Part shown: positions 2,267 to 15,628 of the stretch, piece by piece
Position numbering within the stretch: the stretch's first letter is position 1
Layout of the letters: the number at the start of each line of letters is the position of its first letter
DNA from: Candidatus Babelota bacterium
Lineage (GTDB): Bacteria; Babelota; Babeliae; Babelales; CAIQNR01
NCBI GenBank assembly: GCA_965658655.1
Contig: CBFHTA010000002.1
Span: 64,001 to 128,000, forward strand
Direction of reading: 5' to 3'
Length of the DNA stretch: 64,000 bases
Program-made: the position numbers and the translations under genes
Notes under the pieces: model-generated
Databases searched by the model: none
Told to the model about the DNA's origin: nothing
The model's input: only the letters and a program-made list of their open reading frames with translations

Positions 2267-2902
2267 ATGAATAGGAAGATAATTATCACATGTTTAAGCT
2301 TAACCTGCTTGTTTATAGAGGCAAAATCGGTTCGAGTTGTTACAGCTCACTTTAAAGAAGAAAAAATTAATGGACATACGTTTATGTATCGTCTGGATGT
2401 GGTTGATGGGCGTAAGAAAGAACAGTGGGCTCTTAATGGTCGGCCGATTGCTCAAGTTGATTATGACACTAAAATTTTAGAAGAAGAGATGAATGAGCGT
2501 CGTGCAGAACGGGAGCAGGAGTATCAAAAACAGATTAGATTAGCCGAACTTAGAAGCAATATGGCAAATCAAGCAGTTAAGAAACTTCTGGCCAGCACGC
2601 TCCAGGAAATCGAGCAAGGTTTAGCTCAAATTGATCGTTATGAGTTAAATCCATATTTAGTCTACAGCAAGAGTAGCTTTTACGACGAACTTGACCTCGT
2701 CACTTTCAAAGACCAAACAATTCCAGAAGTTAGGCAGGTTTTGGCCGAAAATTTTGACCATGATCAGGCAAAAGAAAAATTAAGCTTAATTCAGTCCTAT
2801 CCGCAGCGGCTTTCAAGCTTATTTGAGGCTACTGTTCAAAATGCTATCAATAGTTGTGATGACCCTAAAAAACTTAAAAACTGGCTTCAGATGCTCTCTT
2901 AA
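2267..2902 (+). CDS. Hypothetical exported protein (211 aa)
   Basis: AGGAG RBS, signal peptide, coiled-coil middle. Confidence 0.75.
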   Translation: MNRKIIITCLSLTCLFIEAKSVRVVTAHFKEEKINGHTFMYRLDVVDGRKKEQWALNGRPIAQVDYDTKILEEEMNERRAEREQEYQKQIRLAELRSNMANQAVKKLLASTLQEIEQGLAQIDRYELNPYLVYSKSSFYDELDLVTFKDQTIPEVRQVLAENFDHDQAKEKLSLIQSYPQRLSSLFEATVQNAINSCDDPKKLKNWLQMLS

Positions 2903-2995
2903 GCTCATGGCGGGTATTGCTATTTGTAATTTTTAGTGTATTCTAGGTTTTACTATTAAATGGAATATTTAGGGGGGAATGAGAGGTTTGTTATT

Positions 2996-3319
2996 ATGAA
3001 GAAAAATATTTTAGCGTTTATATTGATGGGTTTTATTGTGGGTGCTCAAATACAATGTGCAGATGCCCAATCAGGCAGTTTGTTGCGTTGGATTGTACCA
3101 ACAGTGGTCACAGCTGGTGTCGGTTACTATGTTTATAATGCATTTTTTAAGACTCAAAATGCGATCGAAGCAGATAAGCAAGAAAAGCTTACAAGGACAA
3201 AGAAGTATGTTCAAGCAAATAGGGCATCTAGAGGATTGAGTAATTCTGCAAGGCAGCTTGATGCAGTAAGAGAATTAAATGCAGCAATTAATAACAAGTT
3301 TAATAAGAATGTAGAGTAA
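2996..3319 (+). CDS. Small exported/membrane-anchored protein sharing its leader with the next gene
   Basis: GAGAGG RBS; MKKNILAFILMG signal plus TM segment WIVPTVVTAGVGYYVY. Confidence 0.75.
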   Translation: MKKNILAFILMGFIVGAQIQCADAQSGSLLRWIVPTVVTAGVGYYVYNAFFKTQNAIEADKQEKLTRTKKYVQANRASRGLSNSARQLDAVRELNAAINNKFNKNVE

Positions 3320-3338
3320 GGTAACTAGAGAGGTTATT

Positions 3339-4400
3339 ATGAAAAAATCTATCTTAAGTTTTATGCTGATGGGAGCACTTTTCGCTCCGTTTACCTTTTG
3401 TTCTGCTGCTCCAAAAAGAAGTATTACTGCTTTGGTTGTTCCTGCTCTAGTAACAGTTGGAGCGCTTTATTATGTTTGGTCTCATTGGAACAGCTCTCGT
3501 CCTGTTTTTTCTCAACCTAAAAGTTACGATTTTGCTCTTCCTGCAGCAACAAAAAAACATACAACAACTATTGATGTTATGCCTGCCTCAGAGTTAGGTG
3601 CTGTACCAGCACAACAAGCAGTGAAATTAATGCAATATTCTGTTATGCAACAAGGAGAAAACAACGATGGCGGTGCAAGTTGTGGGTATCATGCACTTAA
3701 GAATGCAATTGGTATTTTAACTAAAAATCATAATCTCTTTAATGATAGAGCATTCATTAAAAGACAGTTTAGTTTAGATCCAGGGACTTGGCGTGAATGG
3801 GTACAAGCAAAGCAGGGTGATAATGGCGAGTGGGTTCATACTGAGTTTTATGCAGATTTAATTACACGTGCATTTAATGAACGCAATATTAGATGTGGAT
3901 GGTCTATTCTTAATTCGCAAGGTCAGGCTATTAACGATGCTCATGTAGGGGAAGATATTTATGGGGTTTTCCGAATGTTAACATCAGAAGATGCTTATAA
4001 ACATGCTTTCTTTGTTAATACTGCAAGTGGTTATAATGTAGGGCAGCATGGACATTGGTTTGTGGTGATTATGGAAAAAGAAGCTCATGGACCAACAACA
4101 TATACGGTAATGGATTCTTTAGGTCATGAAAGGCACGCCGATAATACTGTTTGGACTATTATTAAAAGTATTCATCGCATTGCAAAAATTACTAGTCCAG
4201 AAGTGTTAGGAGATGAAAAACAAAAGACAAAAGTTTTGTTGCTAGATGTGGTTAATGGTTTATCTGATCAAAAGATGAATACAAACCAAAAAGAGAAATT
4301 AACAAGTATGGTTTTAGATCTTTATACAATTTTGCTTTCCCAAGGTGCAGTTGATGAAGAGATAAAAAAGGCGATGGTCAGGTTTATGGTTTTGGTCTAA
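3339..4400 (+). CDS. Exported papain-like cysteine protease, Josephin-like (putative deubiquitinase)
   Basis: Signal + TM, then QQ...SCGYHALKN (C115), AFFVN...GHWFVV (H239) and VMDSL (D259), in Josephin order. Confidence 0.7.
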   Translation: MKKSILSFMLMGALFAPFTFCSAAPKRSITALVVPALVTVGALYYVWSHWNSSRPVFSQPKSYDFALPAATKKHTTTIDVMPASELGAVPAQQAVKLMQYSVMQQGENNDGGASCGYHALKNAIGILTKNHNLFNDRAFIKRQFSLDPGTWREWVQAKQGDNGEWVHTEFYADLITRAFNERNIRCGWSILNSQGQAINDAHVGEDIYGVFRMLTSEDAYKHAFFVNTASGYNVGQHGHWFVVIMEKEAHGPTTYTVMDSLGHERHADNTVWTIIKSIHRIAKITSPEVLGDEKQKTKVLLLDVVNGLSDQKMNTNQKEKLTSMVLDLYTILLSQGAVDEEIKKAMVRFMVLV

Positions 4401-13971: not shown

Positions 13972-14038
13972 ACTTTGACCCCTGTTTTAAATAAGTGTTT
14001 ATTTTCATTAGGTAAGCTTAATCTTAAGCTTGCCACAC

Positions 14039-14077
14039 AGTGTACAGCTCATAAAATCTTAGTCAAGTTTACTAATA
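14039..14077 (-). promoter_or_regulatory. dnaK sigma70-type promoter overlapped by a HAIR-like HspR operator
   Basis: Minus-strand TTGACT(14066-14061)-N16-TACACT; inverted repeat TTAGT-N7-ACTAA at 14059-14075. Confidence 0.6.
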
Positions 14078-14233
14078 TTTTTTTATGGTCCAATGTAGGT
14101 GAGTGAGCTTGAGTCATTCTGTAATAAGCTCCAGGAAGGCAAACTCTTGTTTTTGAGGTTGTAAAACTGTTAAGCTTAAAGCTCGCTTAATTAAAGTGTG
14201 AAAATTGAAAAAGAAAACCCGGGGGGGAGTAAA

Positions 14234-15628
14234 ATGAAGTTAAAAAATATTCTATTAATTACCTTGTTGTTCGGTAGCGCAACGCTTGTGCACCAGGTTC
14301 AGGCAGCAGAAGATGTTGCAGCTATTGATGATGGAGAGACAGGAGAATCATCATTGAGTGGAGATACAGATGACGACGGTAACAGGGTATTAGATGATGA
14401 AACTTATGATGAACGGTATGGCGAAGAGGGTAAATCGTGGCATCAAAGATCAGCTCGTCAGAACTTTAATCGTGTAAAGAATTTCTTTAGTGGCACAAGA
14501 GATGTAAGAGCTAGTAAAGCAAACTTTAGCAGTTCTAGTCCGGAAGCATCATCTATTGGTACTGGTGGAGTGAACGCAAGTTCACAAGAACAGAGTATAC
14601 GTATTACGGCAGATAGAGGGCTTACATTGCAATCTAGAGATAACAGAGACAATCAATTGGTGCAAAACGCAAGTAATAAAGCCCAAGTTTTAAGAAATGT
14701 TTTTCAGAATGGAGATTCAATTGATTTAGGTAAAGACAGCAATAGTAGCTTTAGTTATGCAACTGCTGATAGCGATAGTCTTGGCAACGTAAAGGTTGGC
14801 TATTATGATGGAGAAGGAAATTTGCAAACAGAAAGTCTTGATCAAGGTAAAGCTCAAAGACTTATAAACGGTAAAAATTCAGAAAATGCAGTTGATACTT
14901 GGAGAAGAGCAGGAGAAAAACTAGGGCAATCGTCGGATCAGGAAGGTGATCCATTAAGTGCTCTGAGGGGGAGTATTGATCCTGATGGTGCGAGTGCAGA
15001 TGAAATTTTAAATGACCCTGGAATTAATAGAATTTCTGCAAGAAATGCAGCTGATACTTCGATAAGATCAGGAGCAAGGGCGGGTGATTTTGATGAAAAT
15101 GGAAATTTGCTTGATGGAAATGGAGATCCTGTTTTTGGTGATCCTGATGATAGCAATAGCAGAGTAAATCTTAACGGTCAAGATACTAGAGCAGTTGAAA
15201 TTCGTAAAAGTAGATCTGGATCAGGTTATACGGTAGATACTGATCTGGGACTATCTAAACGATTCACATCTGAGGAAGATGCTCGAAATTGGGTTCGCGG
15301 CGGTGGAGATCCTGTTTATGATTATTCTGACAGTCCTACTGACTCTGGTAATGAAGAGTATGATAATTCTATTATGGATTCACCATCACTCTCCTCCAGT
15401 GAGCAGCCATCTCGTCTTGACTCTGGAGCGCAGGATCTTGAAATGGATGATCCTGATGACTCTTATCCTGCACTTCCAAAAATATTAGATGCGCGTACTG
15501 GGGAAGAAGTGGACCCTGCAGATCCTAGAGCTTGGGGCACAGGTATGCGAATTGAAAAAGATAATAATTTAGCTAATCCACAAGGTTCTAGTTATACCGA
15601 TTCTCTTTCTGATGGTAGTTTTTATTGA
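14234..15628 (+). CDS. Exported acidic D/S/G-rich protein, candidate effector
   Basis: GGAG RBS; signal peptide MKLKNILLITLLFGSATLVHQVQA; repeated DxxGN loops and Tyr in acidic context. Confidence 0.8.
   Translation: MKLKNILLITLLFGSATLVHQVQAAEDVAAIDDGETGESSLSGDTDDDGNRVLDDETYDERYGEEGKSWHQRSARQNFNRVKNFFSGTRDVRASKANFSSSSPEASSIGTGGVNASSQEQSIRITADRGLTLQSRDNRDNQLVQNASNKAQVLRNVFQNGDSIDLGKDSNSSFSYATADSDSLGNVKVGYYDGEGNLQTESLDQGKAQRLINGKNSENAVDTWRRAGEKLGQSSDQEGDPLSALRGSIDPDGASADEILNDPGINRISARNAADTSIRSGARAGDFDENGNLLDGNGDPVFGDPDDSNSRVNLNGQDTRAVEIRKSRSGSGYTVDTDLGLSKRFTSEEDARNWVRGGGDPVYDYSDSPTDSGNEEYDNSIMDSPSLSSSEQPSRLDSGAQDLEMDDPDDSYPALPKILDARTGEEVDPADPRAWGTGMRIEKDNNLANPQGSSYTDSLSDGSFY

Follow-up and report, generated by a model that had tools for sequence, protein, structure and literature searches.

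A patch of predicted Sec-exported proteins in the hspR-ychF-dnaK-typA region of a Babelota genome, including a putative circularly permuted Ulp1-like peptidase

The 64,000-nucleotide stretch of DNA analysed here, referred to below as the window, covers positions 64,001 to 128,000 of contig CBFHTA010000002.1 (GenBank assembly GCA_965658655.1). The locus of interest, at window positions 2267 to 15,628, is a belt of eight plus-strand open reading frames (ORFs), termed g1 to g8, which display signal-peptide-like starts and occupy the gaps between the minus-strand genes hspR, ychF, dnaK and typA. The source genome, 928,713 bases long and split over 4 contigs, has a completeness of 95%. Its DnaK is closest, among named organisms, to Ca. 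Dependentiae/Babeliaceae (69-72% identity, against ~58-64% for other phyla), which places the genome in Babelota (Dependentiae/TM6). In two marine-plankton runs from a single study, one of them possibly the source, contigs cover the stretch, with even depth across both orphan and housekeeping genes. The locus comprises the following features.

1657..2193, minus strand: hspR-like regulator of the MerR family (Pfam MerR_1, E 9.8e-19), anchor gene, divergent from g1
2267..2902, plus strand: g1, 211 residues, single-copy signal-peptide protein, divergent from hspR, no Pfam or Atlas match
2996..3319, plus strand: g2, 107 residues, basic, signal peptide and hydrophobic anchor segment, paralogous to the g3 N-terminus
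3339..4400, plus strand: g3, 353 residues, putative circularly permuted Ulp1-like (papain-fold) cysteine peptidase, from conserved residues, relatives and model
4401..4429, unstranded: bidirectional terminator hairpin common to g3 and ychF, from the sequence
4430..5524, minus strand: ychF, anchor gene (Pfam)
6169..6792, plus strand: g4, acidic Gly/Ser/Met-rich orphan with a 27-nucleotide tandem repeat (repeat search, genome comparison)
6807..6852, unstranded: terminator hairpin between the co-directional g4 and g5, from the sequence
6920..9529, plus strand: g5, 869 residues, acidic charged orphan, no relatives found
9723..11159, plus strand: g6, 478 residues, acidic disordered orphan, no relatives found
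11259..11990, plus strand: g7, 243 residues, proline-rich disordered orphan, no relatives found
11993..12048, unstranded: perfect 24-bp inverted repeat, bidirectional terminator common to g7 and dnaK (inverted-repeat search)
12061..13971, minus strand: dnaK, anchor gene (Pfam)
14234..15628, plus strand: g8, 464 residues, acidic disordered protein whose signal peptide, and not its body, matches a same-genus locus
15668..15701, unstranded: bidirectional terminator common to g8 and typA, from the sequence
15717..17522, minus strand: typA/bipA, anchor gene (Pfam)

A preliminary description of this DNA, made from the sequence alone, had given the positions and plus-strand orientation of the eight ORFs, their placement around the anchor genes and the use of shared bidirectional terminators, and all of these were borne out. 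The four anchors lie on the minus strand, the name hspR being inferred for the first from its MerR domain and its linkage to dnaK, and hairpins with A/T runs on both sides were identified at 3 of 3 convergent junctions, a further hairpin with A/T runs being located between g4 and g5 (6807-6852). The terminator scan of the window was overall at chance (13 against 11.6 expected), and the terminator calls therefore rest on position and length; the promoter scan was likewise at chance (33 against 42.8 expected). The window has no Rfam match, and none of the eight genes reaches any Pfam family cut-off. The described lack of secretion-apparatus genes holds for the window genes named by ORF listing and Pfam, a scan that covered part of the window ORFs.

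The g3 protein comprises a signal peptide, a hydrophobic segment at residues 29-48, which may serve as a host-membrane anchor, and a catalytic domain at residues 93-282 with Q105, C115, the H239-W240 pair and D259. The g3 profile retrieved 719 representatives at E<=0.001, and the family is present in 45 of the 121 genomes of the order, with signal-peptide-like starts in 106 of the 151 family proteins examined. Relatives display near-invariant Q, CGY, HW and DS blocks, of which the Q..CGYHA block precedes the HW and DS blocks, and the His-Trp pair is found in at least 90% of 78 family sequences. An aromatic gatekeeper following the catalytic His is described for ubiquitin and ubiquitin-like (UBL) proteases (PMC7391069), and the His-Trp pair of g3 corresponds to that gatekeeper. 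The g3 domain model, with a predicted local distance difference test (pLDDT) value of 94.8, finds papain-fold and CE-clan proteases, mostly ubiquitin/UBL proteases, in nearly all of the 50 structural matches listed. They include the USP-like TssM (Z 6.1 and root mean square deviation (rmsd) of 4.0 over 130 aligned residues) and BpJOS (Z 6.1 and rmsd of 4.1 over 134 aligned residues); Pfam Josephin is matched by 1 of the 78 family members, at E 0.037.

The order of the catalytic blocks differs from that of the CE clan. In g3, C115 precedes H239 and D259, which is not the His-Asp before Cys order of CE-clan (C48) enzymes, and the CE-clan chains CidB, OtDUB, XopD and SseL align to residues ~60-190 of the g3 model only, as circular permutation predicts. 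The sequence match to 7FIU is weak (E 0.26) and consists of two blocks in swapped order. The ‘circularly permuted Ulp1’ family described in Babela contains Q..CG, HW and DS blocks in the same order as g3 (PMC4378268, supplementary file 13), and a search with the g3 profile retrieves P0139 (E 1.2e-18), which resembles Babela_gene_562 at the start and in the Cys block. The Babela peptidases are described as 9 paralogues fused to an AAA ATPase (PMC4378268), whereas g3 (353 residues, no Pfam match) has no AAA domain and occurs as one compact copy that carries a hydrophobic anchor towards its N-terminus. Judged by sequence, the peptidase domain of g3 belongs to this Babela family, with a different domain architecture.

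The g3 protein shares Q..CG, HW and DS blocks and a papain-like fold with CE-clan proteases (Ulp1/C48, the Wolbachia CidB deubiquitinase 7FIU, OtDUB, XopD, NopD, SseL) and with bacterial Josephins (BpJOS 9F5T, PcJOS 9FN4), while it differs from the clan in that Cys precedes His and in having no solved close relative, its protease role being predicted from the model. Fold and motifs together make g3 a probable ubiquitin/UBL protease, and its activity is a prediction drawn from them. In fold searches, the full-length model either drew matches to its C-terminal helical bundle throughout or found nothing at E<=0.001, and the domain model likewise found nothing with Foldseek; phmmer and a 13-sequence profile retrieved no solved relative, and Atlas gave papain-clan leads only, at 0.85-0.90. 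No assay of this peptidase family was found in the literature outside subscription papers. Two family relatives match UIM weakly. Elsewhere (L108:1066-2427), a family member is fused to three RanBP2/NZF-type zinc fingers and lies beside further family members.

The short g2 protein, which was searched by itself in its own genome only, aligns with the g3 N-terminus (40% identity over 50 residues, E 2.5e-7), and the start regions of the two genes contain a 41-nucleotide repeat of 78% identity. By these alignments, g2 is a tandem duplicate of the g3 leader. In the preliminary description all eight genes were orphans, most of them acidic and disordered. Orphan status fails for g1, which a single-sequence query found in 42 of the 121 order genomes (its own included), nearly always in one copy, and for g3 with its 719 representatives, and g2 is a short g3 paralogue; for the other five no relatives were found. 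An isoelectric point (pI) below 5 is displayed by 4 of the 8 proteins only, and g2 is basic (pI 10.1). As for disorder, FoldIndex, which is crude and responds to coiled coils as well, scores g5 to g8 as 0.86-0.98 unfolded; g4 is a Gly/Ser/Met repeat protein, and g3 is folded.

The five proteins encoded from 6169 to 14234 are, from their composition and motifs, most likely disordered, motif-bearing host-interaction proteins. The 27-nucleotide tandem repeat of g4 is present in ~10 copies. The g5 protein contains three FFxS motifs and has a disordered N-terminal part followed by a C-terminal part that is probably a coiled-coil, and the predicted mature g6 starts with Met-Asp. The g7 protein contains PxxPxR (2), P/NxYL (4) and DEDDFGTVV (2) repeats, partly reflecting internal duplication; these motifs may be SH3-ligand, tyrosine and kinase-linker mimics. 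No match to g4, g5, g6 or g8 was found in any of 15 family genomes searched for each, nor to g7 in 5 genomes. A search of 5.8 billion proteins returned no relative of g5 among 8000 scored candidates and, within the limits of that search, none of g7. Hidden orthology between g4-g8 and the proteins at the corresponding positions in relatives was rejected, as an all-against-all BLASTP of 38 such proteins and g2-g8 linked only g3 to others, and an ‘A-P’ motif seen by eye after the signal peptide of the large ones was discarded because no alignable homology with g5 was found.

Wherever the locus holds both g1 and hspR (13 of 13 distinct genomes), the two genes are divergent. It has no match in Pfam, and Atlas gave nothing usable. 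Its conservation indicates that g1 is probably a resident envelope or periplasmic protein and not a fast-evolving effector. Finding the proteins to be conserved periplasmic or structural components of free-living relatives had been named as grounds for abandoning the effector interpretation; g1 is conserved and envelope-like, while its carriers are parasite relatives and not free-living.

Signal peptides were called by a charge/hydrophobicity heuristic rather than by SignalP, and it flags 4 of 2842 internal methionines as false positives. The described signal-peptide starts were recovered for 7 of the 8 genes; g4 scores below the threshold and is typical by eye (basic n-region, h-region, and ANA followed by Met). 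Across the genome, 338 of 824 ORFs of at least 100 residues have signal-peptide-like starts, 294 of them without further membrane segments. Pfam was surveyed for 290 of these soluble proteins, the 4 omitted being three DUF5122 propellers of the window (one scanned separately) and an ORF that spans a gap. No Pfam match at 1e-6 was obtained for 201 of the 290, and the domains counted by hand from the tables include, besides envelope proteins, 9 ankyrin, 9 C2H2 zinc-finger, 2 RING and 3 leucine-rich repeat (LRR) proteins.

Against this background the belt is not a distinct type of locus. Seven of 10 consecutive ORFs here are signal-peptide-like (8 of 10 with g4), and 11 regions of the genome hold at least 7 such genes in 10 (500 label shuffles gave a mean of 6.5, and 7 of the 500 reached 11), so that the belt is one of many and its density ordinary. 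The acidic low-hydrophobicity class of secreted proteins is enriched in the belt, which holds 3 of the 7 found among the 294, g4 not counted. Leading-strand placement was rejected as an explanation for the common orientation, as no genome-wide leading-strand bias of signal-peptide genes was found (147 versus 135). A denser secreted-gene region (9 of 10; C2:148890-184753) holds a second acidic low-hydrophobicity group, whose mature ends start Met-Asp-Gly/Ala, like that of g6.

The secretome of Chromulinavorax destructans, with 44% signal-peptide genes enriched in ORFans (PMC6561590), is similar to that of the present genome in its share of signal-peptide genes (~40%), ORFan enrichment, ankyrin and eukaryote-like cargo, and Sec export. 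The present genome differs in having few ankyrins (9 of 290 signal-peptide proteins) and many C2H2 arrays (9). Babela massiliensis (PMC4378268) likewise displays islands of secreted proteins of no assigned function among housekeeping genes, type II as its sole secretion system, and permuted Ulp1-like peptidases with signal peptides. The belt is thus a further instance of the known Babelota secretome, and both this secretome and its type II route are already in print as predictions. A Sec-dependent effector repertoire, as first proposed for the eight genes, is supported at the genome level by the signal peptides ahead of ankyrin, C2H2, RING and LRR domains and locally by individual genes (g3, g7), and probably does not hold for g1.

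Other signal-peptide proteins of the genome were recorded alongside these. The nine proteins with eukaryote-type C2H2 arrays (C1:520256 and C2:157-3897, in L153 and L154; also L150:16096, L151:10838 and L151:11634) are candidate host-nucleus effectors by their domain, and six of them form one paralogous set starting LNG followed by M[DE]. A further protein (L170:2407-4461) matches a SAP30-type zinc finger, a eukaryotic chromatin domain, at E 3e-9. Seven or eight large genes lie in tandem at C2:223169-238851 (L162-L163), and five of them match right-handed beta-helix families; together they are possibly an adhesin or surface array. Three tandem DUF5122 beta-propeller genes lie at window 19006-23389, and comparable arrays come after dnaK or typA in two relatives (L184, L180).

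Comparison of the lineage revealed that the dnaK-ychF-hspR gaps, referred to here as slots, are lineage-wide turnover slots. The counts include only loci with both anchors, exclude the study window, and derive from related genomes that are not independent. The three genes dnaK, ychF and hspR run in one direction in relatives, in some cases with little between them (gaps of 80, 186 and 94 bases). Fourteen dnaK-ychF gaps, 2 of them empty, hold 38 ORFs (32 antisense, 23 signal-peptide-like), and 13 ychF-hspR gaps, one of them empty, hold 26 (21 antisense, 21 signal-peptide-like). Combined, 53 of 64 genes are antisense and 44 of 64 signal-peptide-like, compared with 119 antisense among 298 mixed neighbour pairs genome-wide. 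Members of the g3 family lie in or beside these gaps in six relatives (L003, L013, L014, L015, L117, L125). Positional conservation of the slot was not encountered in the available text of the Babela paper (PMC4378268).

The typA-dnaK gap of one same-genus genome contains three signal-peptide genes for disordered proteins. The g8 signal peptide is the top match, among the 294, for two of them and a tied second for the third, while the mature parts reach z<=0.9 against g8 and z<=2.5 against g4-g8, and the bodies are unalignable. Slot signal peptides thus appear, from these alignments, to stay conserved while the bodies diverge past alignment. Tandem pairs with common leaders are represented by g2/g3 here and by a pair in L015 that is 82% identical over the first 51 residues. 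As tandem duplication keeps orientation, same-strand arrays would need no special mechanism. A small hydrophobic family (70-130 residues) is located just upstream of ychF in several relatives (L002, L004, L005, L008, L010, L012-L015), with three copies in the present genome on C3 (59837-61045).

The preliminary description had left blank the route across the outer and vacuolar membranes. This stands for the vacuole; for the outer membrane, a route is in print and type II secretion genes were found at three positions.

C1 179,310-187,846: gspC-gspD-(PilM-like)-(unnamed)-gspD, from profile matches
C1 234,563-238,161: gspF with four prepilin-motif genes, from profile matches and N-methylation motifs
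C1 276,115: gspE, from a profile match

The two GspD-type secretins have TIGR02517 as best model (E 2e-78 and 1e-81, below the curated cut-off), GspE has TIGR02533 (616.8 bits, cut-off 630; PilB 600) and GspF has TIGR02120 (368, cut-off 424), while GspG scores 92.5 bits with TIGR01710, above the cut-off of 88.85. Further pseudopilins are indicated by 4 N-methylation motifs in a row after gspF. The GspC-like protein matches at E 4.7e-22, below the cut-off; a PilM-like protein occupies the GspL position, and the ORF at the GspM position has no match. The one PF00437 (T2SSE family) match at E<=1e-20 in the genome is GspE, and thus no PilT was found in this 95% complete assembly. TolC, FlhA, VirB10, VipB, TatC and autotransporter families, searched as markers of type I, III/flagellum, IV, VI, Tat and V systems, were not found in the genome, and the controls were detected. 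By these profile searches, type II is the only secretion system found in this genome. Secretins are present in 30 of 31 genomes, the present one included, and T2SSE and Omp85 in 31 of 31.

In Babela, type II secretion, the sole system detected, has been predicted to serve the export of host-interaction proteins (PMC4378268). Two gspD copies occur in all seven TM6 genomes (PMC4776705), and the type II/type IV pilus core described there is similar to that of the present genome in its two GspD-like secretins and in core orthologues throughout the phylum, no difference having been found from the available text. The available text on Chromulinavorax names Sec and vesicles only (PMC6561590), whereas type II genes are present here. 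Legionella ProA and ChiA (PMC5478897) provide a similar case of two-step Sec and type II export by an intracellular parasite of protists, with cargo that reaches the host cytosol across a semipermeable vacuole membrane. In Legionella the type II substrates are folded enzymes on a side route beside Dot/Icm, while no system other than type II was found in Babelota. A third secretin was observed in seven other genomes (G016, G018, G019, G021, G026, G027, G028), in six of them a shorter protein of ~460-620 residues, and several of these encode a second T2SSE-family ATPase of ~400 residues. This suggests, at the level of gene content, that the third-secretin genomes have a second type IV filament system, outside the family of the present genome.

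Taken together, the belt is probably an ordinary dense patch, one of ~12, of the large Sec-exported proteome of a Babelota intracellular parasite, with turnover at slots and export by type II. The gaps of an old dnaK-ychF-hspR cluster would be occupied by antisense genes that have promoters of their own and share bidirectional terminators. Tandem duplication, divergence and loss would turn these genes over, with rapid change in the body and retention of the ribosome-binding site and signal peptide. The inner membrane would be crossed by Sec, as the signal peptides suggest (TatC was not found), and the outer membrane, for most of the proteins, by the two-secretin type II system, whose components are present and whose export of these proteins is presumed. 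The host cytosol would be reached through residence of the bacterium in it (cytoplasmic replication is reported for Chromulinavorax; PMC6561590) or through a leaky vacuole, by analogy with the Legionella substrates. Several points weigh against this explanation. The heuristic also flags ~12 evidently cytosolic enzymes among Pfam-named proteins. For g3, the best structural Z is only 6.1, and Pfam C48 is matched by 3 of 78 family members only (best E 4.5e-4). GspE is ahead of PilB by 17 bits only, and a type IV pilus role for one secretin is left possible in PMC4776705. The proteins that type II systems transport are, by published description, fully folded (PMC7949064), whereas 4-5 cargoes here look unfolded; g3 folds, according to its model, and g5-g8 are those with high unfolded fractions.

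A bolder and rather unlikely proposal is that the two-secretin type II system is a bulk delivery route for disordered linear-motif effectors sorted by their mature N-terminus, and that the dnaK-ychF-hspR gaps are an effector nursery that includes the predicted ubiquitin-type protease family of 719 clusters. The sorting cue, a weak one, might be an acidic or neutral mature N-terminus, often Met-Asp/Glu after an L-x-[SAG] cleavage site. [AGSC]-Met-[DE] is found at the cleavage zone of 15 of the 294 signal-peptide proteins here and of 17 of 160 in relatives, against ~0.5% of deeper windows, and mature starts are more basic in envelope residents than in eukaryote-domain proteins (n=21 versus 17, hand-picked, p=0.016). 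Met at +1 as a general export signal was rejected, as the 24 eukaryote-domain proteins display it only in a set of 6 C2H2 paralogues and the 22 envelope proteins not at all; it is a lead only.

Departure of the disordered proteins (6169-14234) by vesicles, by a second Omp85 with TamB, or through a degenerate outer membrane, with type II serving only folded enzymes such as g3, is rather unlikely. Shed vesicles are seen early in Chromulinavorax infection (PMC6561590), outer-membrane synthesis in Babeliales is described as degenerate (PMC4776705), 27 of 31 genomes encode a second Omp85 and the present one encodes TamB, and the folded nature of usual type II cargo (PMC7949064) fits such a division. 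Set against this, no beta-barrel autotransporter domain was found in the genome, and the retention of two large secretins in almost all genomes suggests a heavy load.

It is quite unlikely that, instead of being effectors, most of the eight serve the bacterium itself in its periplasm or on its surface, whether as acidic spacers, as stress protectants connected with dnaK/hspR or as adhesins. The conserved g1 and its constant divergence from hspR agree with such a role, as do the stress genes flanking the slots, and low-complexity acidic proteins need no host target. Envelope residents are conserved, yet 5 of the 8 have no detectable relative even in the family; the predicted ubiquitin-type protease and the PxxPxR and tyrosine motifs point to a eukaryotic cytosol, and members of the protease family are found repeatedly in these slots. 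A dedicated capture or switching locus, with cassettes inserted by duplication of housekeeping 3' ends, would account for the convergent insertion at those ends and is highly improbable, since copies of the ychF, dnaK, typA or hspR 3' ends were found neither as nucleotide nor as protein sequence in window 1-19000 or the genome, and no integrase or transposase was found among the window ORFs in the studied stretch.

Other features of the window are unrelated to secretion. A 97-nucleotide hairpin-forming element at 5676-5771 has a second copy at C1:404899-404993 (83.5% identical, no Rfam match); both copies lie upstream of minus-strand housekeeping genes (ychF and the gene at C1:403341-404873), and the element may be a leader RNA or a small mobile repeat. 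At 36076-40462 lie four tandem genes of ~300 residues each that resemble multi-membrane transporters and are presumably EamA-like. GC skew changes from positive to negative at ~48000-52000, near dnaN/recF-like genes named by eye (45758-47955); such a change usually marks a terminus and not an origin.

For the biology of Babelota, the locus itself adds little, as signal-peptide orphans make up ~1/4 of the genome. The combination of fast-evolving disordered cargo with type II as the only system makes it testable what type II recognises and whether unfolded proteins move through it; if the bolder proposal were true, type II export of disordered effectors would break the rule of folded, structure-recognised cargo. 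As a compact, confidently modelled member of an order-wide peptidase family, g3 would offer an easy target for a new class of deubiquitinases or UBL proteases.

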